From: Polyangiales bacterium
GTDB taxonomy: Bacteria > Myxococcota_A > Polyangia > Polyangiales > Houyiibacteriaceae
DNA length: 64,000 bases
Direction: 5' to 3'
Assembly (NCBI GenBank): GCA_041576815.1
Contig: JBFGKE010000001.1
Coordinates: 147,708-211,707, forward strand
Positions 6,115 to 22,300 of the stretch are shown piece by piece. The notes under the pieces were generated by a model, which saw nothing but the letters and a program-made list of their open reading frames with translations, made no database searches and was not told where the DNA came from. Every line of letters starts with the position of its first letter. Positions within the stretch are counted from its first letter, which is position 1. Position numbers and translations under genes: made by a program.

Positions 6115-7662
6115 TTACCTTCGGGGCTGCATCTCGCCCGCCCTGAAGCGGCTCCAGTAGCTTTGCAGCGCGTCGCGAACCTTGCCGCTCAGCAGCACCG
6201 CACCGAGAATGTTGGGAAAGGACATGCCGAGAATCATCAGGTCCGAGAAATCGATCACGTTACCGAGCTTGAGGACCGAACCGAGCACGATGAACCCGAG
6301 GAACAAGACCTTGTAGAGGATCGAGTAGTCCGCCCCGAACAGGTACGTCCAGCATCGCTCGCCATAGTAGCTCCACGAAATCATCGTCGAGAACGCAAAC
6401 AGAAACACGGCGAGGCTCAACACCTTTGGAAACCAGGGAAGCACCGTGGCAAAGGCCTTCGAGGTCATCAACACTCCCTCTTCGCCACCGGTTTGGTACG
6501 CGCCGGTGATCACCACGACCAGACCGGTCATCGTGCACACGACGATCGTGTCGATGAAAGGCTCTAGAAGTGCGACGATCCCTTCCCGCACCGGTTCGTC
6601 GGTCGCCGCCGCCGAGTGCGCGATCGAGGCGGACCCCACGCCGGCTTCGTTCGAGAACGCCGCGCGCCGGAAACCGGTGATGAGCACGCCTACAAGCCCT
6701 CCGAGACCGGCCTTCGGCGTGATCGCCTCGCCGACGATCTTGCCGAAGGCCGGAACGACCTGATCGGTGTGGGTCAAGATGATGAAAAACCCGGCCACGA
6801 GATAGATGCCGCACATGATCGGCACGATGAACCCCGCGACTTGGCCGATGCGGCGGATGCCCCCGATGATCACGATGCCGACGAGGAACGCGAGCACGAC
6901 GCCGTAGGCGAGCGAGCCCCAGCCACCGGAAAAGAAGGGGAGCACGTCGGCGACCTGCGCGTAGCTCTGGTTCGCTTGAAACATGTTGCCGCCCCCGAAG
7001 CTTCCGCCGACGCACATCACTGCGAAGAGGATCGCGAGCACTCTCCCGAGGCGCGGGAGGCTCAGCTCCCGGAGCCCGGATTCGAGGTACCGCATCGGGC
7101 CGCCCAAGATGTGTCCGTCTTTGCCGACCTCGCGGTACATCTGACCAAGCGTGCACTCGGCGAACTTCGACGACATGCCGAGGAACCCCGCGACGATCAT
7201 CCAAAAGACGGCCCCGGGGCCCCCGACGGCCACCGCCACGGCGACGCCCGCGATGTTCCCGAGGCCCACCGTCGCCGAAAGCGCCGAAGAGAGGGCCTGA
7301 AAGTGCGTCACCTCGCCGGGATCGTCGGGGTTGTCGTAGTGCCCGGAGGTGACCGCCCAGGCGTGCTTGAACGCCCGGAGGTTGATGAAGCCGAAGCGGA
7401 GGGTGAAGAAGGTCGCGCCGGCGATCAGCCAGACCACGATGAAGGGCAGCTTGACGTCGTGGTCGGTGCCGTTGTCCCAAAAGGCCAGGTCATAGAAGAG
7501 CACCGTGGCCATGGGACCGACGACGTTGGCGCCGAATCCCTCGTCCAGGGACCTCAGGACGCCCCCGATGCCCGCTTCCGAGTGCGCGTCGGCCTGAGCC
7601 AGAGCGGACGCCGGGAACAGCCATGCCCCAAAGACCGCGAGCGCTCGCAGGCATCTCCCCAT
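6115..7662 (-). CDS. Alanine/glycine:cation symporter (AGCS family)
   Basis: FQALSSALSATVGLGNIAGVA, GGPGAVFWM, FSNEAGVGSASIAH, FAFSTMISWSYYGE; start trimmed to MGRCLR. Confidence 0.92.
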   Translation of the reverse strand: MGRCLRALAVFGAWLFPASALAQADAHSEAGIGGVLRSLDEGFGANVVGPMATVLFYDLAFWDNGTDHDVKLPFIVVWLIAGATFFTLRFGFINLRAFKHAWAVTSGHYDNPDDPGEVTHFQALSSALSATVGLGNIAGVAVAVAVGGPGAVFWMIVAGFLGMSSKFAECTLGQMYREVGKDGHILGGPMRYLESGLRELSLPRLGRVLAILFAVMCVGGSFGGGNMFQANQSYAQVADVLPFFSGGWGSLAYGVVLAFLVGIVIIGGIRRIGQVAGFIVPIMCGIYLVAGFFIILTHTDQVVPAFGKIVGEAITPKAGLGGLVGVLITGFRRAAFSNEAGVGSASIAHSAAATDEPVREGIVALLEPFIDTIVVCTMTGLVVVITGAYQTGGEEGVLMTSKAFATVLPWFPKVLSLAVFLFAFSTMISWSYYGERCWTYLFGADYSILYKVLFLGFIVLGSVLKLGNVIDFSDLMILGMSFPNILGAVLLSGKVRDALQSYWSRFRAGEMQPRR

Positions 7663-7978
7663 CCCCGTCGAGCACCATGGCACAGCGCCAGAAAGCCGAC
7701 CAGTTTGTCGGCCTGCGGGCAGCGCCAACGTCCGCTCCGTGGCCCCACCCCGCCGTCTTGAACAAACGACCAGTCCGTCCAAACTTCGACCAACGGTGAA
7801 GCTGAAATCGACCGTACGAGCGCAGGCACAGAGGAAGCAATGATTTCGGATGCTTGAGAAGCAGTGAGACAGCGTGTTCGCGGACGCTTTGGTCCATGGT
7901 GTAATTCCTCATTTACTTCCGGTAGTTGCACATCAAGCGTTGTCCTGGACAATCCGTGACCAAGGGGTATCAAAAAGG

Positions 7979-8007
7979 TTGTGAAACGACCAAGTCGTCC
8001 GTAGGCT
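7979..8007 (+). promoter_or_regulatory. Putative sigma70 promoter of the regulator-PKS operon, with a dyad in the spacer
   Basis: TTGTGA (7979-7984), 17 nt, TAGGCT (8002-8007). The spacer contains the palindrome ACGAC-CAA-GTCGT. ATG lies 8 nt after the -10 with no SD, so the transcript may be near-leaderless. Confidence 0.45.
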
Positions 8008-8015
8008 AATTCGAC

Positions 8016-8834
8016 ATGGTGGAGTTGCTGAGCACGTCGGAGGCCGCCCGCATCATCGGGGTGGGCACGACCAGCGTAAAGCGCTGGGCGGATACCGGGC
8101 TGCTCGACTGCGTGCGAACGGCGGGTGGCCATCGGCGATTCACGCGCAACGCCCTCGACCGCTTCGTGCGCCTGCAGCAGCAGCAAGAGCCCGTGGTCGA
8201 CGAGGTCGACCGGTGGTTGGATGTGCTGCTTTCGGAGATGAGCCACGAGCTTGCGCTGGTGCGCGCGTGCGCGCGGCTGGGCTCGTGGTGCGCCGTCGCC
8301 GAAGAGCTGTCGCCGGTCCTGACCGAGCTCGGCCTGCGTTGGAGCAGAGGCGAGATCAGCGTCGGCGAAGAGCACGCCACGTCGGAACGCCTGTCGCGGG
8401 CGCTCGCTCGCATCGTCGAGTCGCTTCCGCTCTTGCCCACGGCACCTCTCTGTCTTTTGGCGTGTATCGAAACCGAAGATCACGCCTTGGGCCTTTCGCT
8501 TGCCGAGCTGTGTCTTCGAGAGCTCGGGTGGGCATCGCTTTGGCTTGGTCGGCGTACGCCCACCTCGGCGATCGTCGATCAGATTTGCAACAATGATCGC
8601 ATTCGCATGGTGGGTCTTTCCGCTTCGGAAGCATGCGCCAATCCGTCCTTACTTCGACTCATCAGCTCTTCCGTGGGTTCCGTTTGCCGGGACCGAGACG
8701 TTGCCTTGATCTTGGGGGGGAGAGGCCCGTGGCCGGAGGTGCCGAGCTACGGCACTCGAATTTGGGGTTTCCACGAGATCGAGGTCGCGCAAAGACGAGT
8801 TCAGAAAAACAGCCGGAGACCGTCCGTACGGTGA
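8016..8834 (+). CDS. CarH/LitR-like cobalamin-binding transcriptional regulator (MerR/excisionase-type HTH plus B12-binding domain)
   Basis: N-terminal HTH LSTSEAARIIGVGTTSVKRWAD...RTAGGHRRF; W-x9-EH motif (RWSRGEISVGEEH); E-x-H-x2-G motif (TEDHALG); Rossmann-like C-terminus (VGLS...LILGG). Confidence 0.85.
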   Translation: MVELLSTSEAARIIGVGTTSVKRWADTGLLDCVRTAGGHRRFTRNALDRFVRLQQQQEPVVDEVDRWLDVLLSEMSHELALVRACARLGSWCAVAEELSPVLTELGLRWSRGEISVGEEHATSERLSRALARIVESLPLLPTAPLCLLACIETEDHALGLSLAELCLRELGWASLWLGRRTPTSAIVDQICNNDRIRMVGLSASEACANPSLLRLISSSVGSVCRDRDVALILGGRGPWPEVPSYGTRIWGFHEIEVAQRRVQKNSRRPSVR

Positions 8835-8858
8835 CCAACGCCTTGCTTCGATAGGGAA

Positions 8859-11800
8859 ATGCCCGTGATCGATCGAACCCTGATTCCCGACTCCGCCGTT
8901 GCCGTCATCGGCATCGGCTGCTGGTACCCAGACGCGCCGAACCCATCGCGGCTCTGGGAGAACGTGCTGGCTCGTCGACTCGCGTTTCGTCGCCTCCCTG
9001 CTCAGCGTCTTCCGCTCGAGGCATACCACGACCCCGATTTTCGAACGCCGGACAAAACGTACGGACGCAAAGCCGCCGTCATCGATGGCTTCGAGTTCGA
9101 TTGGAAGAGGAGACGCATTCCGAAAAGCACGTTCGAAGGCACGGACATCGCCCATTGGCTTGCGCTCGAGGTCGCGCTTCAGGCGCTGTGGGACTCCGGG
9201 TATGGGCGGGGGACGCTGCCAAGAGAGCGCACGGGTGTGATTGTCGGCAATACGTTGACCGGCGAGCAGAGTCGCTCCACCAATTTGCGGATGCGGTGGC
9301 CGTTCGTCGAGCGTGCGATCCGTGCCGCTGCCAATCACGAGGGCATGAGCGTGCGCGCCACCAGTGATTTGATCGATTCCACGCGTTCGTACTTCAAGTC
9401 CGTCTTTCCGGCGGTCGACGAAGACACGCTTGCCGGGTCCCTTTCCAACACCATTGCGGGCCGGATCTGCAACTTCCTCGACCTTCAAGGAGGCGGGTAC
9501 ACCGTCGACGGGGCATGTGCGTCGTCGCTGCTGGCCGTGACCAACGCGGCCAACGTGCTGAGGAACGGCGACCTCGACGTGGCGCTCGTTGGTGGTGTCG
9601 ACATCAGCCTCGACCCGTTCGAGCTCGTGGGCTTTGCCAAAGTGGGCGCGCTGAGCCCGACGCAGATGCGGGTCTACGACCGCGCCGCGAACGGTTTCGT
9701 GCCGGGGGAGGGCTGCGGCTTCGTCGTCCTCAAGCGCCTCGAGGATGCGCGTGCGGATGGGGACTACATCTATGCGACGCTCCGCGGTTGGGGTGTGTCT
9801 TCGGACGGCGCGGGCGGGATCACCGCCCCGAGCGTCGCCGGCCAGGCGCTTGCGATTCGGCGTGCGTACAAGCGCGCGGGTTACTCCCCCGAGCTCCTCG
9901 ATTTCGTCGAGGGACACGGCACCGGCACCCCGGCGGGCGACCCGGTGGAGCTCAAGGCGATCGCGAGCGCGATGGAAGCGTACGGCGTGCGGAATCCGCG
10001 TCGGTGCGGCGTCACCTCCTTCAAGTCCATCGTCGGGCACACCAAGGCGGCTGCCGGCATCGGAGGTTTCATCAAGGCCGTCATGGCGGTGAATCGCCGG
10101 GTCATCCCGCCGACCTCTGGTTGCGTCGATCCCAGCGCGACCTTCGCAGACGACGCGCGCGTGCTCTACCCCGTGAAGACCGGGCACGTCGATTCGCCGG
10201 ACGAGGTCGTTCGGGCAGGCGTTTCCGCGATGGGGTTTGGGGGCATCAATACGCACGTGACGATCGAGTCGTGCGACCCTCCTGCATCACGGCTCAGGCC
10301 CTCCCTCGACGAGGATGTGCTGCTCGCCTCTGCACAGGACACCGAGCTGTTCGTGATGTCGGCCGCCAGCGTCGATGCGCTCAAGAAGCGCGTCGAGCAA
10401 GTTGCGGCACGCGCGGACGGCACCAGCACGGGCGAGCTCGGCGATCTTGCTGCCGAGCTCTCGCGAGAAGCGGCTCCGGACGGCTTGGTTCGGACCGCGG
10501 TCATCGCTGGCGACCCGGATGAGCTCGAGGAGCGCCTTCAAGAGGTTCTCGACGTGCTGAACGCCGAGCCGCCGGGCGAGGGAACGGTCGTACGCTGTCC
10601 GCGCGCCCGGCATCGCGCTTGGCTTTCGAATGCGCCCCGGCGGCCCCGGGTGGGGTTTCTTTTCCCGGGGCAGGGCTCGCAGCAGCTCGGCATGGCGCGT
10701 CGGCTCGTGCGACGCTTCGATTGGGCCAAGCGGTTCGCAGAGCAGACCGATGTGTGGCTGGCCGAGCTCGGGTGCGAGCCCGTGACCCCGTTGGTGTTCC
10801 GGCCCGTGGAGCGCGCACACGACCAAGAGCAGGTGCGTGACTGGGCACGGACGCTCCGCCAAACCGAACACGCCCAACCCGCCATCTGTTTCGCGAGCGC
10901 GCTGTGGTTGAAGTACCTCGCGAGACTGGGGGTGACCCCTGACTTCGTGGGCGGTCACAGCTTGGGGGAGCTGAGCGCGTTTCATGCAGCCGGCGCGCTC
11001 GACGAGCGCGCACTCCTTCAACTGGCGGCGACGCGCGGCAAGATCATGGCAGGCGCGAGCGCCTCGGGAACGATGGCAAATCTCTCGTGTACGCGCCAAG
11101 AAGCCGAGGCCCTGATCGCCGAGGTCTCCGGATACGCGACGATTGCAAACCTGAATGCATCCGATCAAACCGTCGTCTCGGGCGACCGCGAGGCGGTGGA
11201 GCAGATCGTCGAGCTGGCCAAGAAGCGCGCGATGGCCGCAGCGCCGCTCGCGGTCTCCGCGGCGTTTCATTCGGCCCACTTTCACGAGGCTGCGTACGCG
11301 CTCCGGCAAGCGGACGGTGTGCCGGAGATCTCGAACCCGATGCATGTGCCTGCGATCAGCGCGATCGACGGCACCGAGATTCGCACGGGGGTTTCGATGC
11401 GAGATTACTTGGGGCGCCAGATGTGCGCCGAGGTCGACTTCGTGAGGCTGGTGCGCGCGATGGACGAACGCTGCGACCTCCTCCTCGAGGTCGGGCCCGG
11501 GCGCGCTCTGAGCGGCCTCGTCAAACGGATCATCGACGACGAGCGTTTGAGCTGCTTCCCCCTCGAATCGCGGCCCGACAAGGATGAAGACCTCCACGTC
11601 GCCATTGCGGCGCTTTTCGTCGGCGGTCGGCGTCTTCGACTCGATGCGCTCTACGAGGGCCGTCTCAGCAGGCCGTTCATCCCGGCATCTCGAAGAAAAT
11701 TCATCGAGAACCCGTGCGAGCGTCCCTTCGTCGACGAAATTGCGGCTCGAGTCACGACGAGCGCCTCCCATCAGCCAGCGCTCTCAGTTCTGCCGCAGGC

Positions 11801-14800
11801 AGGGTCCGACGAGCACGCCAGGGAGGCGGAGCCACCACATCGCAGCGTCATCGAATCCCAGATCGTCACGAAGCCCTCCGTGCACGGCGCCGTTCTCGCA
11901 TCGGTGGAGGCGCAAACGGGGTTCCCGATCGAGACTCTGACCCTCGACCTCAGGCTCGTGGATGACCTTCACCTCGATTCGATCAAGACCGTGGAGCTGG
12001 TCTCCGAGGTCGCTGACCAGCTCAAAATCGAGGTGGATTTCGACGCGGCGCAGTTTGCAGACGTGACGCTCGGAGAGTTGGTCGAGCGGATGGAGGCTCT
12101 GCAGACCGATTCCTCACCGGCGCCGGCTCTCGACTCGGTGGGCGCCGCGGGCGCGACGCGGAGCACGTCGGCGCGCGAACGGCCCTGGGTGGCGAATTTT
12201 GCGCTCGAGTGGAAGGAATCCACGTTGCCCCCAGCGCCGGAGTACAACGATCTGAAGACGGGGCGCGCTCTCTTGGTGGCGCCCGACCCTTCTGATGGTC
12301 TCGTCACGGATCTCGCAAGGGAGCTCGGCAAGCGGGGCGTCGACGTGATCGTGTCGGGGTCCAGGCTGGACTCCGACGGGGACGCGCCCGTGGATCACCT
12401 GCTGGTCGTGAGCCCGGACGCGAGCGCTTCGGACGACGTTGCGGCATTGCACGAGGTCGTCGAGCTCTACACGGGCGCCGCGCGTCTGCTGCCATCGACG
12501 GGAGCGCGCCACGGAGGCGCCTCGTGCGTGGCGTGGATTCGAGCGCGCTCATCCGAGCCGCAGGCGAACGGCCACGCCGACTGGGCGGCAGATGCGTTCG
12601 CCGCCACGGTTCACCTCGAGCGAAGGCAGCTTCGCGTTCGTTCGCTCGACTTCGCCGGCGCCGACCTTCAACCCGGTCGCATCGCGGAGGCCCTTGTCGA
12701 AGAGCTCGCGGGCGACGGGACGTTCGAAGCGGCGCGCTATGACCGCGCGGGGCGACGCTCGGTGGGAGTGCCCACGCTTCAGTCCCGAACGGCGTACAAA
12801 CGCCGAACCACGGCCATATGCGCGGACGACGTCGTGCTGGTCACGGGCGGAGCCAAGGGAATCACCGCAGAATGTGCTCTTGCGCTCGGGCGCGAGACAA
12901 GGGCCACGATGGTTCTCGTGGGCAGCTCGGCGGCGCCCGAGGACGCTGCCGAGCCCGACCCGGGGAACGAGATCGGTGCGACCTTGGCGAGGTTCCGAGC
13001 GGAGGGGCTCCGGTGCCACTATCGCCAGTGCAATCTGGCGGTGCGCGACCAGGTGAACCGCCTCGTCGCGGGCGTGCAGCGCGACTTCGGCTCGCTCGAT
13101 GCGGTCGTCCACGGCGCCGGGCTCAATCGGCCGCGTCCGGTCGAGGAGCCTGACGCCGCGGAAGTCCTCTCCGAGATCGAACCGAAGCTCGCGGGAGCGC
13201 TTCATCTCTTCGAGGCGCTCGATTCGGCGCCTCCCAAGATGTTCGTCGCCCTCACCTCGATCATCGGCGTGGTGGGAATGCCGCGCAATGCCTGGTACGG
13301 CTTTTCAAACCAAGCTCTGGACCGCAGCCTCGAGCGCTTTGCGGCTCGCCATCCGTCCGTCGAGACCCTGTCCGTGGCGTACAGCGTCTGGGACGAAGTC
13401 GGCATGGGCGCGAAGCTCGGAAGCATCGAAAGGCTCGCGAAGCTCGGCATCGACGCGATCCCGGTGGAGGAAGGGGCCGCGCGTTTTCTGGAGCTCGTGG
13501 TGCGTGACCCGGGAACGCGCGAGGTCATCGTGGCCGCACGTTTGGGCGGCCTCGATACGTGGCGTCCCGCGCTGCCGCCGCTGCCGCGGGCCCACCGCTT
13601 CATCGACCAGATCGTGAGGCTCGAGCCGGGGCGTGAGCTCGTCTGTCGGACCAAGCTCGACGTCGAGCGAGACCCATATGTCGAGGATCACGTGTATGAG
13701 GGCGCCCGTCTCTTGCCGGCGGTGTTCGGCATCGAAGCGATGGCCGAGGCCGTCGCACACGTCACCGGTCGACCCGAGCTCCCTTTCCCGCTTTGGCTCG
13801 AGGACGTCGAGCTAAGGCGGCCGCTCGTCGTTCATCCGGAACGTGGGCTGCTGATCGAGATTCGCGCGCGAGTCGACGACGGTGACTTGTTCGAGTCGGC
13901 GCCACAGCGGATTCGCGCAGAGGTCCGCTGCCAACAGACGGGGTTCGCGAGCGCTCACTTTTCAGCATGTTTCGTTCTCGGCGCCGACACGAAAACGGGC
14001 GCGCGGTTTTTCGAGATGCCGGCCGAAGCTTTGCCCATTCGACCGCGCCAGCATCTGTATGGCTCCGTTCTCTTCCAGGGCCCGCGGTTTCAGCGAATCG
14101 AGAAGGTCTTCGCGCTCGACGCGCAGAGATGTGTCTTCGCCGCGGAGCGGGACCCGACACGCGAGAGCTGGCTCCTCGGCGATCCGTATTTCCGGGACGC
14201 TCTGCTCCAGAGCCTGCAGCTTTGCGTCGTGCCGGATCAGTGCCTGCCGGTACGCGTCGATCGCTGGGAGATTCACGGCCAACCGGCAAAGAGGGAGAGG
14301 GGCCTCGCACGGGCCACGATCGACGGCCACGAAGACGACACGTACATCGGGACCGTGAATGCCGTCAGCGCAGACGGATCGCCGCTCGAGAGCCTCCTCG
14401 GCTACCGCGCACGCACGCTGTCCCAACGACAAGACTGGCCCCGCGCGGCCGAGCTCGCCTCGCGCGGTGCTGTCCCGGCCGTTCCGCTTCGCGTGATTCA
14501 CGGCGATGCCCTGGAAGACGACGTGCGCATCCAGGTGAATCGGCCCGAGCCATGGGACGGCGGGGTCTTTTATCGAGATGTGCCCGGCTACGGCCACGAA
14601 GGCCAAACGGCGTTTTTCTGTCGTTTTCCCTTGAGCGCGCAGGATTCCTCCTCGGTGAGCGGGTCACTGAACTTCACCAGCTACTTCCGGTGGGCGGGCA
14701 AGCTTCGGGAGTGGGGCGGGATGAACACCCCGGGCGTCTACGAGGGCATCCTCGAAATGCTCGGCTCGAACTCGGTGATGTCGGCGACGAACGAATGCGA

Positions 14801-15590
14801 GACTCGCATCTTCAAGGTGCCGAAGCGCAACGACTTCATCGAAGGCCGGTATTGGATGGAGTACGTCAACAAGGGCGACGCGGGAAACATCTTCGAGTGG
14901 TGGCGCATCCCTTTCCCGAGCGGCGAGCCCGAAATGATCGCGTGGACGAAGATGCGGATCTCGGCGGTCAAGTCGGTGCGCCACGGCGTCATCTCCGCCA
15001 CGGATTGGCCAGACTTCTTGTACCGGTTCTTGAAAGACATGGGAGACGATGCGCCCGAGCCCACGGTCGGCCCCGCGCTCGAGCTCGACCTCGGCGCCAC
15101 CCTGTTTGCCAAGGTGCCGGGGCCTCAGCCGGGCCCGCTCCTCGCCGAGCAAACCTACTCCACCGCAACAGAGGACTCCAACGTCGTCGGCAACATCTAC
15201 TTCGCGAACTACAGCGCGTGGCAAGGTCGACTGACGGACGGGTTCTTTCACTCCCTGGCGCCGCACCTCTTCGAAGAGCGCGGCACGCACGGAGAGCTCC
15301 ATCGTGCTCAGACCCGCATCAGCCAGCTCCGAGATGCGATGCCGTTCGACGAGGTTGGCGTTCTCATGCGTCTCGAGGAGCTTTACGAGCGCGGGGCGCG
15401 GTTGAGCTTCGAGTTTTTCCGGAAAGAGCCAGCCGGCGTCACCAAAATCGCCGCGGGGCGCAACCTCATCGCGTGGGCGACGCTCGAGCGCGGCGCAGCG
15501 CCTCGACCGTTGCCATGGCCGGAGGAGCTCCGCGACGCGCTTCTAGCAGCCACGGGACAAAGCGTGCGCATCTCGCAGGGCCATGTCTGA
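8859..15590 (+). CDS. Enediyne-type (PksE-like) iterative type I PKS: KS-AT-ACP-KR-DH-TE(hot-dog)-TE(hot-dog)
   Basis: KS: LWENVLARR, GNTLTGE, EDTLAGSLSNTIAGRICN, DGACASS, EGHGTGT, GHTKAAAG. AT: FPGQGSQ, GHSLGE, AFHS. ACP: DDLHLDSI. KR: VTGGAKGITAECA, YGFSN. DH: DHVYEGARLLP, DPYFRDA. C-terminal hot-dog motifs: TSYFRWAGKLRE and EDSNVVGNIYFANYSAWQGR. Confidence 0.9.
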   Translation: MPVIDRTLIPDSAVAVIGIGCWYPDAPNPSRLWENVLARRLAFRRLPAQRLPLEAYHDPDFRTPDKTYGRKAAVIDGFEFDWKRRRIPKSTFEGTDIAHWLALEVALQALWDSGYGRGTLPRERTGVIVGNTLTGEQSRSTNLRMRWPFVERAIRAAANHEGMSVRATSDLIDSTRSYFKSVFPAVDEDTLAGSLSNTIAGRICNFLDLQGGGYTVDGACASSLLAVTNAANVLRNGDLDVALVGGVDISLDPFELVGFAKVGALSPTQMRVYDRAANGFVPGEGCGFVVLKRLEDARADGDYIYATLRGWGVSSDGAGGITAPSVAGQALAIRRAYKRAGYSPELLDFVEGHGTGTPAGDPVELKAIASAMEAYGVRNPRRCGVTSFKSIVGHTKAAAGIGGFIKAVMAVNRRVIPPTSGCVDPSATFADDARVLYPVKTGHVDSPDEVVRAGVSAMGFGGINTHVTIESCDPPASRLRPSLDEDVLLASAQDTELFVMSAASVDALKKRVEQVAARADGTSTGELGDLAAELSREAAPDGLVRTAVIAGDPDELEERLQEVLDVLNAEPPGEGTVVRCPRARHRAWLSNAPRRPRVGFLFPGQGSQQLGMARRLVRRFDWAKRFAEQTDVWLAELGCEPVTPLVFRPVERAHDQEQVRDWARTLRQTEHAQPAICFASALWLKYLARLGVTPDFVGGHSLGELSAFHAAGALDERALLQLAATRGKIMAGASASGTMANLSCTRQEAEALIAEVSGYATIANLNASDQTVVSGDREAVEQIVELAKKRAMAAAPLAVSAAFHSAHFHEAAYALRQADGVPEISNPMHVPAISAIDGTEIRTGVSMRDYLGRQMCAEVDFVRLVRAMDERCDLLLEVGPGRALSGLVKRIIDDERLSCFPLESRPDKDEDLHVAIAALFVGGRRLRLDALYEGRLSRPFIPASRRKFIENPCERPFVDEIAARVTTSASHQPALSVLPQAGSDEHAREAEPPHRSVIESQIVTKPSVHGAVLASVEAQTGFPIETLTLDLRLVDDLHLDSIKTVELVSEVADQLKIEVDFDAAQFADVTLGELVERMEALQTDSSPAPALDSVGAAGATRSTSARERPWVANFALEWKESTLPPAPEYNDLKTGRALLVAPDPSDGLVTDLARELGKRGVDVIVSGSRLDSDGDAPVDHLLVVSPDASASDDVAALHEVVELYTGAARLLPSTGARHGGASCVAWIRARSSEPQANGHADWAADAFAATVHLERRQLRVRSLDFAGADLQPGRIAEALVEELAGDGTFEAARYDRAGRRSVGVPTLQSRTAYKRRTTAICADDVVLVTGGAKGITAECALALGRETRATMVLVGSSAAPEDAAEPDPGNEIGATLARFRAEGLRCHYRQCNLAVRDQVNRLVAGVQRDFGSLDAVVHGAGLNRPRPVEEPDAAEVLSEIEPKLAGALHLFEALDSAPPKMFVALTSIIGVVGMPRNAWYGFSNQALDRSLERFAARHPSVETLSVAYSVWDEVGMGAKLGSIERLAKLGIDAIPVEEGAARFLELVVRDPGTREVIVAARLGGLDTWRPALPPLPRAHRFIDQIVRLEPGRELVCRTKLDVERDPYVEDHVYEGARLLPAVFGIEAMAEAVAHVTGRPELPFPLWLEDVELRRPLVVHPERGLLIEIRARVDDGDLFESAPQRIRAEVRCQQTGFASAHFSACFVLGADTKTGARFFEMPAEALPIRPRQHLYGSVLFQGPRFQRIEKVFALDAQRCVFAAERDPTRESWLLGDPYFRDALLQSLQLCVVPDQCLPVRVDRWEIHGQPAKRERGLARATIDGHEDDTYIGTVNAVSADGSPLESLLGYRARTLSQRQDWPRAAELASRGAVPAVPLRVIHGDALEDDVRIQVNRPEPWDGGVFYRDVPGYGHEGQTAFFCRFPLSAQDSSSVSGSLNFTSYFRWAGKLREWGGMNTPGVYEGILEMLGSNSVMSATNECETRIFKVPKRNDFIEGRYWMEYVNKGDAGNIFEWWRIPFPSGEPEMIAWTKMRISAVKSVRHGVISATDWPDFLYRFLKDMGDDAPEPTVGPALELDLGATLFAKVPGPQPGPLLAEQTYSTATEDSNVVGNIYFANYSAWQGRLTDGFFHSLAPHLFEERGTHGELHRAQTRISQLRDAMPFDEVGVLMRLEELYERGARLSFEFFRKEPAGVTKIAAGRNLIAWATLERGAAPRPLPWPEELRDALLAATGQSVRISQGHV

Positions 15591-18279
15591 CGCAGCGAGT
15601 CGCATTTCAGGTCCAGCGACTTTCGACGAAGCGCGGCGGAAGACGAACATTCAGGGCCTGAAAGCGGCGACCCTCTCGGCGCTCGTCGTCGTGTCGTCTT
15701 TTGCGTGGGTGGAGTACTACCAGGTCCGAGAGCATTTCTGGCTTCTTCAAACGCTCCGCGGAGTTTGTCTGGCCGTGCTTGCGGTGATCGCGTTCGCGGC
15801 ATTCCGCGCGCGGCCATGGACGGTCCGTCACGTGGACGCTCTGACGATCGGTGCGTTCCTGGTCTGCGGTTGGTACAGCATCACGCTCATGCTGCTTCAC
15901 GATGGGTACAACTCCGAGTTCTTTCTCACGCTCGTCTTCATCATCGTAGGAGTAGGCGCGGTCACCCTTTGGCCGATCGAGACCGCGTTGGTCTACATGC
16001 TCCTCATCATCGTCTCCTATCTCGCGCCGCTCCTCTTCGGCCTCGCCGAGGTGAAGAAGGGGGACGTGTTCCCGATCCATCTCAGCTTCCTGCTCGGAAT
16101 GGCGATGATCAGTGTCGTCGCGCAACAGCTTCGCTACCGAATCGAGAGGCGGGAGTTTCTGACCAGCCGAAGCCTCGAGGAAACCAAGGCCTCTCTCGAG
16201 GTGGCGTACGACCGGCTCAAGGAGCTCGACCAGCTCAAAACCGACTTCTTTGCGAACGTTTCCCACGAGCTTCGAACGCCCCTTACGCTTTCGCTCGGGC
16301 CGCTGGAGTCGCTGCTGCGGGAACGACACCGGCCCGAGGTCGAAGAGCAGCTCGAAGGCCTCCGGCGAAACCAGCTCCGGCTGCTCCGCTTGATCAACCA
16401 GCTGCTCGATTTCGCGAAAGTGGAGTCCGGCAACGTCCAAGCGGAATTCGGCAAGGAGGACGTAGCCGCCTTGGCGCGCCGGCTGGTTGGCGATGTCGAA
16501 GGCGCTGCCGGAGCGAAAAGCCTCGAGATCGAGCTCGCCGTGCCGTCGGAGCCGGTGTGGCTTTACATCGATCGCGAAAAGCTCGAACAGACGCTCCTCA
16601 ACCTGCTCTCGAATGCCTTCAAGTTCACGCCAAAGGGCGGCCGCATCACCGTGAGGGTGAGGGAGCTCGATCAGGCGGTGGAGATCCGCGTGAGCGACAC
16701 AGGCATCGGGATCGACCCCGACAAGATCCACACGATTTTCGACCGGTTCGCCCAGGCGGACTCGTCCGAGACCCGCCGCTACGCGGGGACGGGGATCGGC
16801 CTTTCCCTGGTGAAGACCAACCTCGAGCTTCACGGCGGCACGGTCGACGTGCAGAGCGAGCCTGAGCGCGGCACGACGTTCATCCTCTCGATTCCTCGCG
16901 GCAAGGCGCACCTCCCCGACGCACACGTGTTCGAGCATTCGCGAACGCCGGCGGAGTCGGCCCTGAAAGCCGAGCAGCTCGTCGAGTTCGCGGCCGAGCC
17001 CCAGGAAGAGCCGGCCGACGCCCATGCGGCAGACCAAGCCCTGCGGCTCGATCAACTCGATGAAGACGAGGACGACCCCGTCTCCGTGGATTGGGTCAAC
17101 CGGCTCTTCGAAATCGACGATGACAAGCCCCGCGTGCTCGTCGTCGACGATGCCGCGGACATGCGGCGGTATCTATGCTCGATCCTCGAGCCCGATTACG
17201 AAATCAGAACTGCCAAGGATGGCGCCGAAGGCTTGCAGGAGGCCACACGCTGGGATCCCGACCTCGTCGTGTCCGACGTCATGATGCCGGTGATGTCGGG
17301 CTCCGAGCTGTGTCGGGCGATCAAGCGCGCAGGAGGGCGGCTCGCGCGCACACCGGTCATCCTCGTGACGGCGCGCGCCGAGGAGCAGTCCAAGCTGCGC
17401 GGGCTCGGATATGGGGCTGACGACTATCTCCTGAAGCCGTTTCTTCAGGACGAGCTCCTCCTTCGCGTGCGAAATCTCGTGACGAAGCGCCGTCAAGAGC
17501 GTGCGCTCTTCGACGCGCACCTCACGCTGCGCGCGCAGCACGACAACCTGCTTTCGGACCTCGAGCTCGCCCGCAACTTTCAGGAGAGCTTGCTTTCCAA
17601 GCTCGAGATGCCCGAGCCGCTCGACGCGCACGTGGAGTTCCACCCCGCGGACGTCGTGGGCGGCGATTTTTATCACCTCACGTCGCTCGGCCCGAGTCGT
17701 GTCCGGCTGTTCGTCGCGGACATGGTCGATCACGGGGTCAAGGCTGCCGTGCGGGCGGCGGCGGCGTGGCCGGAGTACACGAGCCTCGAGCATCCTGAGC
17801 TCGGCCCGGCCGACGTTCTGACGCGCCTCAACGATGTCGCCACCTCGAAGTATGCCGACCTGTCCGGGAGCTTTCTCTGTCTCGATCTGGACACCGCGGC
17901 CGGCGCACCGACCTCGGCTTGCTACGCCCAGGCCGGCGAAATGCCGTTCATCGTGATGGCCAACGGATCATTCGAGACACCCCCTCACACCGAAGGGTTC
18001 GTCGTCGGCTTGTTTCCCGGCATGAGCTACCAGTCGCGGGAGCTGAGCCTCACCCCCGGCACCCGTCTGTTTCTTTACTCCGATGGCCTGTACACTCAAC
18101 CTGACCACACGGGGCAGACCTTCCGTGAGGGGGGGTTGAAAGAGGCCTGGAGCATCGCGATGGGGCACACCGACATCCGAGCGGCAACCGAGGAGATCAT
18201 CGAATCGATGAAGCGGTTTCGCGGCATGACGGCGCAGCTCGACGACGTGACGCTGATCGGCATCGAGGTAGGGAAATAG
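15583..18279 (+). CDS. Membrane hybrid sensor: 6 TM helices - HisKA - HATPase - receiver - SpoIIE/PP2C phosphatase
   Basis: Six hydrophobic segments with short loops; H-box FFANVSHELRTPL; N-box NLLSNAFKFT; G-boxes SDTGIGI and GTGIGLSL; receiver VLVVDD...SDVMMP...LLKPF; PP2C ARNFQESLL, GGDFY, LYSDGL, DDVTLI. Overlaps the PKS stop by 8 nt. Confidence 0.9.
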   Translation: MSDAASRISGPATFDEARRKTNIQGLKAATLSALVVVSSFAWVEYYQVREHFWLLQTLRGVCLAVLAVIAFAAFRARPWTVRHVDALTIGAFLVCGWYSITLMLLHDGYNSEFFLTLVFIIVGVGAVTLWPIETALVYMLLIIVSYLAPLLFGLAEVKKGDVFPIHLSFLLGMAMISVVAQQLRYRIERREFLTSRSLEETKASLEVAYDRLKELDQLKTDFFANVSHELRTPLTLSLGPLESLLRERHRPEVEEQLEGLRRNQLRLLRLINQLLDFAKVESGNVQAEFGKEDVAALARRLVGDVEGAAGAKSLEIELAVPSEPVWLYIDREKLEQTLLNLLSNAFKFTPKGGRITVRVRELDQAVEIRVSDTGIGIDPDKIHTIFDRFAQADSSETRRYAGTGIGLSLVKTNLELHGGTVDVQSEPERGTTFILSIPRGKAHLPDAHVFEHSRTPAESALKAEQLVEFAAEPQEEPADAHAADQALRLDQLDEDEDDPVSVDWVNRLFEIDDDKPRVLVVDDAADMRRYLCSILEPDYEIRTAKDGAEGLQEATRWDPDLVVSDVMMPVMSGSELCRAIKRAGGRLARTPVILVTARAEEQSKLRGLGYGADDYLLKPFLQDELLLRVRNLVTKRRQERALFDAHLTLRAQHDNLLSDLELARNFQESLLSKLEMPEPLDAHVEFHPADVVGGDFYHLTSLGPSRVRLFVADMVDHGVKAAVRAAAAWPEYTSLEHPELGPADVLTRLNDVATSKYADLSGSFLCLDLDTAAGAPTSACYAQAGEMPFIVMANGSFETPPHTEGFVVGLFPGMSYQSRELSLTPGTRLFLYSDGLYTQPDHTGQTFREGGLKEAWSIAMGHTDIRAATEEIIESMKRFRGMTAQLDDVTLIGIEVGK

Positions 18280-18288
18280 AGCACACCG

Positions 18289-18711
18289 ATGGGACCTGCT
18301 GGAACATTCGAGTTGAAGGGCCATTCTCGACTCCAGATCGATCACCGGGTCGACGAGCATCACGAGCTCACGATCTGGTTCCAAGGAGATATGGTGGTGC
18401 GTCGGGGGACGCGTTTCGACCGATATCTCAGCCATTTGGAAGAACTGGCGGCGCTTGCCTGCGGGACCCCGGCAACCCACGTGCACTGCCACCTCGAGGA
18501 CCTCGGGGAGGCGCTTTCCCGTGCCCAGCACGCGATCTATCGAATGCTAAATGGCATGCGCGGACATGGAATCCCGATTACTATTTACGCGACGGGCGAA
18601 CGTCCAGAGCAATCGGAGCATCTGAAGATGTCCAAGCTCTTCGTGGAGGGGCTATCCAAGCAACCCGGGCCTCCGCTCGAGTTGGTGGAGATCAGGCGGC
18701 GAGCATCTTGA
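18289..18711 (+). CDS. STAS-like / SiaC- or Slr1659-like phospho-acceptor protein (putative)
   Basis: 140 aa; LTIWFQGD...VHCHLEDLGEALSRAQHAI...IPITIY aligns by eye with the STAS/SiaC topology; Ser77 sits at the anti-anti-sigma phosphorylation position. Context next to a PP2C and a kinase supports the call. Confidence 0.55.
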   Translation: MGPAGTFELKGHSRLQIDHRVDEHHELTIWFQGDMVVRRGTRFDRYLSHLEELAALACGTPATHVHCHLEDLGEALSRAQHAIYRMLNGMRGHGIPITIYATGERPEQSEHLKMSKLFVEGLSKQPGPPLELVEIRRRAS

Positions 18712-19259
18712 GCAAAGATTCCCAAGTCATGTATGACCTGCTCCTCAAGCCGCTCCGGTTCGATCCGGAGCTGACCGAGTCGGTCATCTTCGGGTTGAAG
18801 TGGACCCTGAGTTCGATGTTTGCCGACCCGTTTCCGGTCCGCGACGTGGTTGTCGCCGTTCGCGAGGTCGTCGACAACGTCTTGACGCACGCCGATTGGG
18901 ACGCGTCGCCGGCGCCTTCGCTTTACGTCCGCTACCGGCTTCACAAAGGCAAGCCCCAGCTCTGCGTGTCGACCACGAACGCGGTCAAAGACGTCGAAGA
19001 GGCGCAGCGCGCGCTGCGCTTCGTGAAGGAATACGTGGGAAGCAAGTCTCCCGCCGCGCTTCATCGCGAGCTCACGGCGCACCTCATCGAATCGGCCAGC
19101 ATTCGCAACAACGGGGGCATCGGCCTTCTACAGGTCGCCTCGTCTCCGCGCTGCAAGCTCGACATCCGCCTCGAAGGACAGGTGTTCCACGTACGGGTCG
19201 ATGTGAATGTGCCGCAGCTTCAAGCGGCCCCGGCGCTCCAAAACCGCACCGGGTCCTAA
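18708..19259 (+). CDS. HATPase_c-like Ser/Thr kinase (SiaB/Slr1658/anti-sigma-like)
   Basis: N-box AVREVVDNVLTHA, VSTTNAV, G2-like NNGGIGLLQVA; TTG start overlaps the upstream TGA (an ATG at 18729 is an alternative). Confidence 0.65.
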   Translation: MSKDSQVMYDLLLKPLRFDPELTESVIFGLKWTLSSMFADPFPVRDVVVAVREVVDNVLTHADWDASPAPSLYVRYRLHKGKPQLCVSTTNAVKDVEEAQRALRFVKEYVGSKSPAALHRELTAHLIESASIRNNGGIGLLQVASSPRCKLDIRLEGQVFHVRVDVNVPQLQAAPALQNRTGS

Positions 19260-19388
19260 CTCCCGGCCTCCGCTCGTCGCCCGCCTTTTCCCTCTGAACG
19301 CGGGGGCTGCACAGGCGAATAGCGGCGTAGTTTATTCAGCATGAACATAAGATTCGACAAATAGTAGAATTCTTGCTTTATTGTCGAC

Positions 19389-22300
19389 ATGGCCGTCGAC
19401 TTAGTCGTTTTACCCACTCAATCCGGCCAACCCGGCTATCAGCGCGCCCCCGTTGTAATTCTGCTCACGTTGGTTTCGGCGCTCGGCGTCTCGGTGGGCG
19501 TAGAAGCCCAGTGCTCGACGGCCGACGCCGACATGAACGGCGTGCCTGACGTCTGTCCGGCGGGCTCCAACTACATCGCCGGAACCGGTGGAGACGACAA
19601 GCTGCGCGGGACAAACGGGCCAGACTGCATCTTCGGGTTTGGAGGCGACGACGACATCGATGGCCGCAAGGGCGACGACTACATTTGCGGTGGGGCCGGC
19701 GACGACAAGCTCAAGGGCAAGGACGGCACCGACATCATCCACGGCGGGGACGGCGCCGACGAAATCAAGGGCGGCAACGGCAACGACGCCCTGAGCGGGG
19801 GGCCGGGGATCGACACGGTCGACGGGGGCAACGGCACCGACTCCTGTGTCGAAGAGGTGCCTGGAACCTCCCAGGGTCTGACCAGCTGCCAGCTTCTCAC
19901 CTACGCCAACGTGAGCGGCCTCGAGGTTTCGCAAGACGACACGGGCTTGCTCGTCACCTGGGAAACCACCACCGAGGTGGGCTCGGTGGCCTTCCGCCTG
20001 TGGCGGAGTGACGCCGATGGCCGCCTTCGGTGGGTTGGCGAGGTGCCCGCCGCGCCCGAAGGTGAAGTGCACGGAGCGCGCTACTTCCTCCGCGACGACG
20101 AGGCGCCGCTCGACAGCACCGTCGAATACATCATCGAGGAGCGCACGGTCTCGGGAGGGAGCGTACAGTACGGCCCGTACGTTCGAAACCCCGAGCCCGT
20201 GGACGCTCGCTTCGCGTTCGCGCGTGTCCGCTCCCGAGCTGCCGGCCGCGTCCCGCGCGAGATCGAGCTACGCCGTAGGGCGCGGCCAGTGCGCGCGCAC
20301 TCGCTCCGGTCGGCCGCGCGGAAGAGCGCCGCGGCGGTCTCTGCGGCGGTTCTGACGGTCGCCGAGCCGGGTGTCGTCGAAGTCGATGCCGGGACGCTGG
20401 CCGACGTGTTCGGGGCGAGCCGGGACGGCGCTGCAGGACTGATTCAGTCCGGCGGGCTCGATCTCCGCCTACGCGGAGAGCCCGTGGCGTGGCACCCAGT
20501 CGGCGACGGAGCTGCGCTCCGGTTCGTCGCCCCTGAAATCAATTCGCCGTTCTCTCGCGAGCACCGCTACCTCCTTTCGATCAATGACGGCCTGACGATG
20601 GAGGCGGCGGTGCTCGTCGAGGGGGCTGCGATGGCGCCTCACACGTTCGTCGCGACGAAGCGGTTCGAAGAAAACGTGTTCCCCGGACCGACGGGAGGCC
20701 CCGACCCCCGCCAAGACCTCTTCTTCTGGCATGCGCTTTCCTCCGAGGCGGAGGCGGTCATCCCGGTTTCGCTTCCCGGGCTGGTCGACGCCGGCGCGGA
20801 AGAGCTTCGGGTCTACGTCCACGGAGCGACCGAGCATCCGGAGCAGCCACACCTCGTCGAGCTTCGTTGGAACGGGCAGAGCCTCGGCACGTTCGAGCTC
20901 TTCGGGCGAAGCCGACACGCGATTCACGTGCCTCTCGACGGCGTGAGCGTCGCCGCGCTGAACGAGCTCGTCGTCGTGCAGCACGTTGCAGGGGAAGCGC
21001 CGCCCGTCCTCTACGTCGATGCCCTCGAGGTGGATTACGCGCGTTTCGCCGAGGCGGATGCGCCCTCGTTCGGTTTCGGCGCGGCCAGTGACGGCACGCA
21101 GCGCGTGACCGGTCTCACGTCTCAAACGGTTCATCTCTACGACGTCACGGACCCGAGCGCGCCGCGGCACTACGGTGAGGTGCCTGTCGACGAATCGGGG
21201 GGCCTGGGCTTTACGTCGGAGGCGCACGCCGGTCGTTTCCTCGCCGCAGCCCCAGAGAGCGTGTCGGTGCCGGTCGCGGTCGCACCGCACGACGCCGCCG
21301 ACCTCCGCTCCCCCGACCTCCGGGTCGACTACCTGGTCGTCGCGGCATCGCACCTGGTCGAGGAGGCGCAAACGCTTGCAGGCCATCGAGAGGCCGACGG
21401 CTATCGCACCCTGGTGGTCGACATCGACGATGTCTTTTGGGCGTTCGCCGACGGCGAGCCCGACCCCCTCGCGGTTCGCGACCTTCTCGCGTTTGCATCG
21501 CGCCAGTGGGCGGTCGCACCGCGATTCGCAGTGCTCGTCGGCAAGGGCAGCATGGACTACCGAGACCTGATCGGGCTCGGCGGCAACTGGCTGGCGCCGG
21601 CGCTCGCCGAGACCGACGGCGGCCTGTTCCCCTCGGATTCGATGCTCGGGGACATCGTCGGTGATGACGGCGTACCCGAGATCGCGATCGGTCGCTTGCC
21701 GGTGACGACGGCCGACGAGCTGAGCCGCGCGCTCGACGCGATTCGGTCGTTCGAAGCCAATCACGAGACGATGAAGGCGCTCTTCGCGGCCGACGACTCC
21801 GAGCGCGGCGAGTTCGTAGCCACCGCCCGCGCGCTTGCCGCGGACGTGGCACCGGGGCGCCTCGATGAGATCGACCTGAATACCGAAGCCCTAGAAGAGG
21901 CTCGACATCGACTGCGGTCCGCGTGGCAGAGCGGCGTCAGCTGGCTGACGTATGTCGGACATGGGGGCCTCGATCGGTTGTCGACCGAGGGCCTGCTCAC
22001 CACCGCAGACCTCCCCGAGCTCGCGCAGACCCCAAGCAGCCCGGTCGTGCTCGGTTGGAGCTGCAACATCGCCCGATTCGACATCCCCGGCTTCGCATCG
22101 CTCGGAGAGCAGCTGGTGGTCGACGGGGGGAGCGCGGCGGTCTTCAGCGCGACCGGCTGGTCGAATCACGTCGAGACCGATGAGCTTCGACAGGCCTTCA
22201 ACGCGGCGGTGTTTGCCTCCGATGCGGAAACCCTCGGCGACGCCATGCTCCGCGCACATGAGGCGGCCGCGAACGCTCCGGTGGCCCAGCATCGAGTGTA

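Follow-up and report, generated by a model that had tools for sequence, protein, structure and literature searches.

A window of 64,000 nucleotides (nt) from an uncultured soil or marine myxobacterium of the order Polyangiales (positions 147,708 to 211,707 of contig JBFGKE010000001.1) contains five consecutive genes that code for a B12-type regulator, a polyene-type polyketide synthase (PKS), a hybrid kinase-phosphatase with a transmembrane (TM) sensor, and two partner-switch proteins. We propose that these genes form one transcription unit that couples membrane polyene synthesis to an intramembrane sensor and a serine-phosphorylation switch, a joint reading that we consider to be evenly balanced between right and wrong. 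The evidence that carries this reading is comparative, namely the conserved pairing of synthase and kinase genes and a hypervariable block that spans the release end of the synthase and the sensor of the kinase. The five genes, in window coordinates and with the basis for each call, are as follows.

8016-8834, plus strand: gene 1, CarH/LitR-like MerR-B12 regulator, 272 amino acids (aa) (Pfam, motifs)
8859-15590, plus strand: gene 2, iterative type I PKS, 2243 aa (Pfam, NCBIfam, PDB search, motifs)
15583-18279, plus strand: gene 3, hybrid sensor kinase-phosphatase, 898 aa (Pfam, hydropathy, motifs)
18289-18711, plus strand: gene 4, STAS-fold partner-switch protein, 140 aa (AlphaFold, Foldseek)
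18708-19259, plus strand: gene 5, SpoIIAB/RsbW-like GHKL protein, 183 aa, TTG start (weak profiles, AlphaFold, Foldseek)

Layout of the operon

The successive junctions between these open reading frames measure +24, -8, +9 and -4 nt, with the ATG of the kinase gene overlapping the stop codon of the PKS gene by 8 nt. Upstream lies a divergent Na:alanine symporter gene (6115-7782, minus strand), and downstream of gene 5 a gap of 129 nt precedes two Peptidase_C25 genes. The G+C content of the operon is uniform with its surroundings in this genome (assembly GCA_041576815.1; 3.69 Mb, 85 contigs, 99.6% complete, G+C ~65%). Terminator-like sites inside the operon are not above chance, with 10 observed and 9.3 expected from shuffled sequence. 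No tailoring, export or resistance genes adjoin the operon, as its neighbors are the symporter and the C25 peptidases.

An earlier note made from the sequence had described this layout, and its five co-directional genes, junctions, divergent transporter and downstream gap match our coordinates exactly, as does its statement that tailoring, export and resistance genes are absent. Domain calls from Pfam, NCBIfam, PDB sequence search, and AlphaFold models compared by Foldseek also bear out its gene identities at the family level, and at that level we regard the assigned functions as secure. Its wider interpretation stands in part. The family identities and the co-occurrence of synthase and sensor hold, whereas an enediyne class for the PKS and a SiaABC-type switch do not. 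A photoprotective pigment in place of carotenoids is unlikely. A literature search found no description of a B12 regulator, a polyene PKS, a TM kinase and a partner switch in combination. As judged from its gene content, the operon as a whole is thus an undescribed combination of known kinds of module, and its synthase adds a member to a family already known.

The synthase belongs with RerA/RerB polyene synthases

On domain content and homology, gene 2 is a fully fused member of the RerA/RerB polyene synthase family that lacks a phosphopantetheinyl transferase (PPTase) domain. Its order is KS-AT-ACP-KR-DH followed by two tandem hotdog thioesterase domains of the E7/E10 type. Specifically, the protein has a ketosynthase (KS; 12-420, with Cys220, His353 and His394), a malonyl-type acyltransferase (AT; 600-878, GHSLGE and AAFHS), an acyl carrier protein (ACP; 1012-1077, Ser1041), a ketoreductase (KR; 1326-1512) and a dehydratase (DH; 1579-1857, His1611), and the catalytic motifs of this part are intact. 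Pfam detects neither an enoyl reductase (ER) nor a PPTase domain, and the hotdog domain 'Y' (~1905-2075, YFRWAGKLRE) and the hotdog thioesterase (TE; ~2095-2225) come directly after the DH. The last 150 residues match SgcE10, CalE7 and DynE7 at 1e-13 to 3e-12 (PDB 4i4j, 2w3x, 2xfl), and the 170 residues before them are a second hotdog copy, for which a profile finds DynE7 at 2.5e-9 and which aligns with the TE at an hhalign probability of 96.8%. The earlier description of a PKS with an E10 thioesterase was therefore right about the E7/E10 family, but the thioesterase has no gene of its own: two copies of it form the C-terminal end of the PKS itself.

The enediyne PKSE enzymes (SgcE/SgcE10, CalE8/CalE7, DynE8/DynE7) share with this protein an ACP between AT and KR and an E7/E10 hotdog thioesterase. 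However, the window PKS has no C-terminal PPTase, its thioesterase is duplicated and fused, and no E3/E4/E5 cassette is present, the neighbors of the operon being the symporter and peptidase genes. A special closeness of the KS-AT region to DynE8 was also rejected, as its 60 best PDB matches do not include DynE8; the best NCBIfam match of the PKS is PfaA, below its cut-off.

The closest described system is RerA/RerB of Rhodococcus erythropolis PR4, in which RerB is reported to have the order 'PPTase - unknown domain Y - TE' (PMC11563203). According to that report, RerA/RerB make C15-C19 hexa- to nonaenes and polyenones with lambda-max of 362-429 nm, both in E. coli and in vitro, and these polyenes decay within tens of minutes (PMC11563203). 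The window PKS resembles RerA/RerB as reported there in its KS-AT-ACP-KR-DH order, the lack of an ER, the Y plus TE didomain and the lack of an enediyne cassette, and differs in being one polypeptide with one ACP rather than two and no PPTase domain (PMC11563203). The main text of the same report mentions no B12 regulator, TM kinase or partner switch (PMC11563203). By homology, the product of gene 2 is likely to be a conjugated polyene lipid of yellow color.

A scan of one genome per species located the Y-TE didomain at 213 loci, and at nearly all of them a KS-AT-ACP-KR-DH synthase precedes it. These loci belong to Desulfobacterota, Nitrospirota, Thermoactinomycetaceae, Rhodococcus, Oligoflexus, cyanobacteria and others. 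The window didomain is 31-32% identical over ~350 aa to two Rhodococcus loci (L093 and L094; tblastn E ~1e-45), one of which (L094) shows the RerA (2053 aa) and RerB (518 aa) gene split, and the Oligoflexus tunisiensis enzyme is, like that of the window, both PPTase-less and fully fused. When the TE and Y motif sites (window 15183-15239 and 14682-14711) were compared across loci L013-L109, the Arg-Glu of the Y motif W.G..RE was present in all 77 loci in which the didomain was found by motif scan. The Arg of the TE motif WQG..RD is replaced by Thr or Ala in one allele type, type a, to which the window belongs. As the TE of type-a alleles lacks the Arg and the RE of Y is kept in all 77 loci, Y may hold the catalytic Arg there. 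The 'unknown domain Y' of RerB is a second E7/E10 hotdog domain, and may be the catalytic one in type-a enzymes.

The genome, at its stated completeness, has a single PPTase, of the ACPS family (C25:48240-48479), which must therefore serve both fatty-acid synthesis and the operon PKS.

A kinase-phosphatase with a six-helix sensor

Gene 3 begins with six predicted TM helices joined by short loops (25-180, from hydropathy), which are followed by a HisKA and HATPase core (219-439, His228), a receiver domain (REC; 518-629, Asp565) and a PP2C/SpoIIE phosphatase domain (705-896; SpoIIE at 3e-28) with intact metal-binding motifs GGDFY, ADMVDHG, YSDGL and LDDVT. The TM domain matches no Pfam family, with MASE8, 7TMR-DISM and HisKA_7TM included in the search and nothing below E = 0.8, so we rejected a known Pfam sensor family for this domain.

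The synthase-kinase pair is the conserved core

The complete cassette is found with the same flanks in two congeners (G024 and G005), complete in the metagenome-assembled genome (MAG) L024 and in part in L034. It is also found on a TARA Oceans contig (L104/L109) with unrelated flanks, specifically a GerE regulator gene upstream, and patatin, S8 peptidase and metallo-beta-lactamase genes downstream. Since the whole cassette is kept with different flanks, the arrangement is more than chance. Further away, PKS orthologues of 44-56% identity occur in G012, G017, G020, G007, G004 and several MAGs without genes for the B12 regulator, PP2C, STAS or GHKL proteins. A homologue of the six-TM kinase follows every one of these distant Myxococcota PKS orthologues for which downstream sequence exists, except for a truncated second PKS copy in G005 (L017) where an intervening open reading frame precedes a weaker TM homologue. 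Thus, the PKS and the TM kinase are a conserved core. The earlier note had named a lack of co-occurrence between PKS homologues and the sensor as grounds for refutation, and this outcome is not seen. The genes for the B12 regulator, PP2C, STAS and kinase-like proteins, by contrast, occur in one sub-clade only.

Close homologues of the TM sensor (E<1e-25) are PKS-adjacent in nine of nine cases, and weaker homologues occur elsewhere. The pair extends to other families of the order (G038 and G027), at a sensor identity of 33-38%, and its distribution within the genus is patchy, as ~11 of 25 genomes carry it. Next to the more distant PKS orthologues the receiver of the kinase is followed by a second HisKA-HATPase unit, and the next two genes code for a REC-HATPase protein and a protein of 156 aa. 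The two genes downstream of the kinase in the sister clade were rejected as relatives of the STAS and GHKL genes, since the comparison showed no similarity.

A kinase gene also adjoins this synthase family in other phyla. Desulfobacterales, including Desulfosarcina variabilis, have a six-TM hybrid kinase gene immediately upstream of the synthase, and MAGs labeled Desulfobulbaceae and Pseudomonadota have a HisKA_7TM-GAF hybrid kinase gene immediately downstream of it. For the TM sensors of Myxococcota and Desulfobacterales, a common origin was rejected at an hhalign probability of 0.4%. As these sensors are not detectably homologous, the association of PKS and kinase probably arose more than once.

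Individual loci have features of their own. At L020 (G038:C1) the PKS has a PPTase-like motif at its end in place of Y-TE, and a PilZ-methyltransferase gene lies between the PKS and TM kinase genes. In the Pseudomonadota-labeled MAGs (L054:10985-12481 and L087) the synthase has 3210-3217 aa; its C-terminal part, after the TE, is a flavin amine-oxidase domain, and the 7TM-GAF kinase follows directly. In G005 the kinase-PP2C gene runs over two reading frames (L014:4125-6834), and at L111 both the PKS and kinase genes are in fragments, which reflects either indel errors of long-read sequencing or decay of the copies. Finally, a Cys-rich protein with a lipoprotein-like signal precedes the sister-clade operons (L015:14176-14952, L039 and L033). 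It is ~45% identical between loci, which places it on the variable side of the locus.

Release end and sensor form one hypervariable block

Domain-wise identity matrices and sliding windows reveal a mosaic structure with one hypervariable segment.

14400-16100, plus strand: hypervariable block from the Y-TE end of the PKS (from ~aa 1850) to the TM sensor of the kinase (to ~aa 170) (identity windows)

Within the clade of the window, between G000 and G024, the identity falls to 32-53% in Y-TE and 28-41% in the TM domain, with most flanking windows at 60-88%. When G000 is compared with L024 and the TARA contig, no part of the operon is better conserved than the Y domain, at 86-95%. Within the sister clade, the part of the kinase from HisKA onward is 88-98% identical while the TM sensor is only 18-40% identical, and this break falls within ~25 residues of the TM/HisKA junction; the two downstream genes there are 76-92% identical and the PKS 26-63%. 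Overall, the hypervariable identities of 18-50% stand beside a kinase core of 88-98%. The Y-TE and sensor types mostly co-vary, in the combinations a-a, b-b, c-c and d-d.

This pattern has known counterparts. The specificity groups of agr and comQXP combine a variable synthase and sensor half with a near-invariant cytoplasmic kinase half. In agrBDC of staphylococci, comQXP of Bacillus, CqsA/CqsS and RpfF/RpfC, as in the window, a synthase gene abuts the gene for a kinase with a multi-helix, loop-less sensor, and in agr and comQXP the variable block likewise covers the synthase and sensor half and leaves the cytoplasmic half nearly invariant. The window differs from such systems in that its putative signal is a polyketide polyene rather than a peptide, a hydroxyketone or a fatty acid, and that the output runs through a PP2C partner switch or a second kinase. 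The mosaic block supports a functional relation between product release and sensing, short of proof.

A partner switch of the RsbV/SpoIIAA kind

Gene 4 has no Pfam or NCBIfam match. Its AlphaFold model (pLDDT 90.9) retrieves, in order, TM1442/RsbV, RsbV, SpoIIAA and then SiaC in Foldseek (E 1e-4 to 9e-3, probability ~1.0). An alignment of 21 homologues shows that Ser77-Arg78 is invariant, at the N-terminus of helix 2 where SpoIIAA and RsbV have their phospho-serine. Gene 5 weakly matches HATPase_c_2, DUF6272 and RsbW, and its model (pLDDT 81.5) has SpoIIAB and UsfX as top Foldseek hits (E 5e-4, TM-score 0.4-0.56). An N-box (REVVDNVLTHA, 52-62) and a G2 box (GGIGLLQV, 136-143) are present, and the start position is supported by an alignment of 23 homologues. 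A word-based search for the two proteins returned 50-70 close metagenome relatives, all of at least 54% identity and from Polyangiales-type metagenomes, and no distant homologues of either.

The SiaABC-type module that had been suggested for these genes was rejected, as a search for DUF1987 (SiaC) gave no match up to E = 10, Foldseek places SiaC after RsbV and SpoIIAA, and no GGDEF gene (SiaD) accompanies the module. The switch is closer to RsbU/V/W or SpoIIE/AA/AB. In the RsbK-RsbY-RsbV-RsbW route of Bacillus cereus, a hybrid kinase, a PP2C, a STAS protein and a GHKL protein make up the partner switch. The window resembles this route, together with SpoIIE/AA/AB, HsbR/HsbA and SiaABC, in the order of a hybrid kinase, a receiver-gated PP2C and a STAS protein antagonized by a GHKL anti-sigma-type protein. 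The RsbK route is the closest functional analogue, except that here a single membrane protein combines the kinase, receiver and PP2C. The window also differs from these modules in having STAS and GHKL proteins beyond the reach of Pfam, no G1 box, and no sigma factor or diguanylate cyclase gene nearby.

An orphan GHKL subfamily related to gene 5 (L106 and L110, ~59-61% identity) occurs without PKS, STAS or PP2C genes. Its context consists of RES-Xre toxin-antitoxin, RadC and DUF3768 genes, and at L110 a gene for a TM-HK-REC-HK kinase lies 5.5 kb from the orphan GHKL gene.

The B12 regulator and its candidate promoter

Gene 1 has a MerR-type helix-turn-helix (HTH) at aa 4-57 (Pfam HTH_17 4.9e-10, MerR_1 5e-9) and a B12-binding_2 match at 1.4e-5, over the Pfam cut-off, with B12-binding below its cut-off. 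Its B12 motifs GLRW (106-109), Wx9EH (109-120), EDHALG/HxxG (His156) and GRRTP (178-182) are kept in orthologues. The published light-response signature comprises GxxW, EH, GxxH and GxxxP (PMC11796333), of which gene 1 holds three of the four elements; His156 is present without the Gly of GxxH. The gene is thus similar to the CarH/LitR adenosylcobalamin (AdoCbl) photoreceptors of Thermus, Myxococcus and Streptomyces in its MerR-type HTH plus B12 domain, Wx9EH motif and lower-axial His, and in heading the genes that the regulator would control. It differs in its excisionase/BldC-type HTH, a shorter helical bundle and the absence of the GxxH Gly, and its candidate target is a PKS-signaling operon rather than crt genes. 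CarH/LitR regulators are described as classically controlling photoprotective pigment genes (PMC8156234, PMC11519972).

One intergenic element precedes the gene.

7979-8007, plus strand: conserved promoter-like element (conserved in five orthologous loci)

This element has a -35 hexamer TTGTGA (7979-7984), a 17-nt spacer with the dyad CGACCAAGTCG (7985-8001) and a -10 hexamer TAGGCT (8002-8007). It is the only conserved intergenic stretch in G000, G024, G005, L024 and the TARA locus L109, and a promoter scanner based on the E. coli consensus did not call it. Only 8 nt separate the element from the ATG, which implies that the transcript has no leader or almost none. From this conservation we infer that 7979-8007 is the promoter, with the spacer dyad in a MerR-like position as candidate operator of the MerR-B12 regulator. 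The genome also has a PduO-type adenosyltransferase for cofactor supply, and gating of the operon by light and B12 is plausible.

Gene 1 is one of three regulators of the B12 photoreceptor type in this genome, the other two being more canonical paralogues with Wx9EH and HxxG. One CarH/LitR paralogue (C36:18249-19142) adjoins a LuxR-type response regulator gene, and the other (C5:110025-117233) adjoins crtB-like, lycopene-cyclase-like and FAD-oxidase genes. There are two SQS_PSY genes in the genome, and one of them (C5:110025-111101) is at this locus, beside the cyclase-like, FAD-oxidase and canonical CarH paralogue genes. A classical light-carotenoid module is therefore present in its own right, and so the idea that the polyene stands in for missing carotenoids as a photoprotective pigment is unlikely and was rejected.

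Proposed mechanism

In the dark, gene 1 would sit on the spacer dyad at 7985-8001, and light would cleave its AdoCbl and release it. The ACP of the PKS would be primed in trans by the single PPTase of the genome, and the PKS would then make linear conjugated polyenes. These would be hydrocarbons (hexaene to nonaene) or polyenones with absorption at 360-430 nm, and after release by the tandem E7/E10-type hotdog thioesterase they would partition into the membrane. There, the six-helix, loop-less sensor of the kinase may detect the polyene, either intact or once light or oxygen has damaged it. The conserved adjacency of the two genes, their translational coupling and the shared hypervariable block suggest that the kinase senses the polyene, and this is the reading that these comparative data best support. 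A His228-Asp565 phosphorelay to the internal receiver would gate the PP2C, and the PP2C would dephosphorylate Ser77 of the STAS protein. The STAS protein could then bind the SpoIIAB-like protein and thereby free a target that is encoded elsewhere.

Several observations weigh against this scheme. With regard to the coupling of synthase and sensor, L021 and L023 pair TE type a with TM type c', which shows that uncoupling of the TE and TM parts can occur. The hypervariable block is also one contiguous stretch of DNA, and a single recombination event could thus give the co-variation. In Rhodococcus, Thermoactinomycetaceae, Oligoflexus and Nitrospirota, members of the PKS family come with no kinase. 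With regard to the synthase itself, the TE in the window has Thr where most relatives carry the Arg of WQG..RD. At the level of light control, the position of the GxxH Gly (-3) is Thr, Glu or Ser in all gene 1 orthologues, and the NCBIfam CarH match (4.4e-16) reaches 59 bits against an equivalog cut-off of 400, so far below it that we call the protein CarH/LitR-like and not CarH. At the output end, the G1 box DxGxG of gene 5 is replaced by STTNAV (88-93). As this ATP-binding box is missing, kinase activity of gene 5 is uncertain and a kinase for Ser77 is not secured. Neither the operon nor its flanks hold a gene for a sigma factor or other output protein.

Alternative explanations

Among the alternatives, the most substantial is that the polyene is a light-induced membrane antioxidant or sunscreen, and that the kinase is a cluster-situated regulator that senses general membrane or photo-oxidative stress and tunes a stress response or PKS expression through the switch. 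The classical role of CarH/LitR regulators in photoprotective pigment control (PMC8156234, PMC11519972) is congruent with this, as are the photoprotective function reported for polyenes (PMC11563203), the frequency of dedicated two-component regulators in biosynthetic clusters and the existence of this PKS family without kinases in several phyla. Nevertheless, a second pigment is not obviously needed where a CarH paralogue already lies beside crtB and cyclase genes, and the operon has no DNA-binding response regulator. A generic stress sensor also leaves unexplained why the sensor is 18-40% identical next to a kinase core of 88-98%, and why three unrelated multi-TM kinases were recruited to one PKS family. 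We therefore regard this explanation as unlikely, though it deserves serious attention. A related idea, that the polyene is a chromophore or sacrificial probe within the TM bundle and the kinase a new blue/UV-A or singlet-oxygen sensor, would resemble a rhodopsin-kinase or the plasmalogen/CarF pathway of Myxococcus. It is congruent with the reported absorption of RerAB polyenes at 362-429 nm and their decay within tens of minutes (PMC11563203), with a sensor of six or seven helices without loops, and with the photoreceptor-type gene at the head of the operon. No conserved Lys or Cys for chromophore attachment and no photoreceptor fold were detected, however, and since the TM domain matches no known family the idea draws on analogy; we think it improbable.

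It is about equally improbable that the product is not a free polyene at all, and that a polyunsaturated acyl chain is instead moved to a lipid or protein acceptor, with the TM domain of the kinase as a membrane anchor or a hand-off acceptor site. The closest NCBIfam relatives of the KS-AT region are PfaA-type synthases of polyunsaturated fatty acids, the canonical TE Arg is missing from the window allele, and the native RerAB product is still to be established according to PMC11563203. Against this, the PKS has no ER and no FabA-type isomerizing DH pair, both of its hotdog domains are hydrolases of the E7/E10 type, and the operon includes no acyltransferase gene. Finally, the adjacency might lack functional meaning, with a recombination hot spot or mobile cassette having brought together two or three unrelated functions. 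The highly mosaic locus, the patchy presence of the pair within the genus (~11 of 25 genomes) and the fragmented copies at L014, L017 and L111 would fit such an origin. This is the least probable of the alternatives, as translationally coupled operons typically show junctions such as the overlaps of -8 and -4 nt and the gap of 9 nt, the pair persists across families where the sensors are 33-38% identical (G038 and G027) and on a marine contig with different flanks, and non-homologous kinases have joined this PKS family at least three times.

Implications

If we extend the coupling of polyene synthesis to sensing, polyketide polyenes would be ligands, or light- or oxygen-labile chromophores, of an intramembrane sensor-kinase class not recognized before, in which, within Polyangiales, the release didomain and the sensor co-diversify into specificity groups like the agr and comQXP pherotypes. 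This would be a new polyketide-based form of self- or cell-cell signaling, placed under a B12 photoreceptor, read out by a serine switch and independently arisen in Desulfobacterota and other phyla. We offer this extension tentatively and think it more likely to be wrong than right.

RerAB-type synthases are found in hundreds of bacteria from many phyla, and the operon offers a testable answer as to their native role. Should polyene sensing prove true, the polyene could act in the membrane as a signal or as a light/oxygen probe with a dedicated sensor kinase, and bacterial signal-receptor systems would gain a new chemical class. Orphan multi-helix kinase sensors would then have ligands, the CarH/LitR regulon would reach beyond carotenoids, and naturally matched synthase-sensor alleles would be at hand for studies of specificity and for light-controlled synthetic circuits. 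Should it prove false, the locus still codes for a compact, self-releasing polyene synthase of biotechnological interest.

Further copies of the dyad

The dyad of the promoter-like element has only three copies in 3.69 Mb, on which ground a genome-wide dyad regulon was rejected. The third and last copy is AACGACCAAATCG, at window 40272-40284. The second lies closer to the operon.

19397-19409, minus strand: second dyad copy, AACGACTAAGTCG (inside codons 1-8 of the gene for the RTX-bearing C25 peptidase)

This copy is downstream of a promoter-like site (19342-19370) and may be a candidate second operator, shared with the carH-like promoter, although its membership in the system is uncertain. 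It is conserved at the nucleotide level in three species (also in G024 and G005; L013:774-784 and L014:3059-3069), and it includes two rare TTA Leu codons despite the 65% G+C content of the genome.

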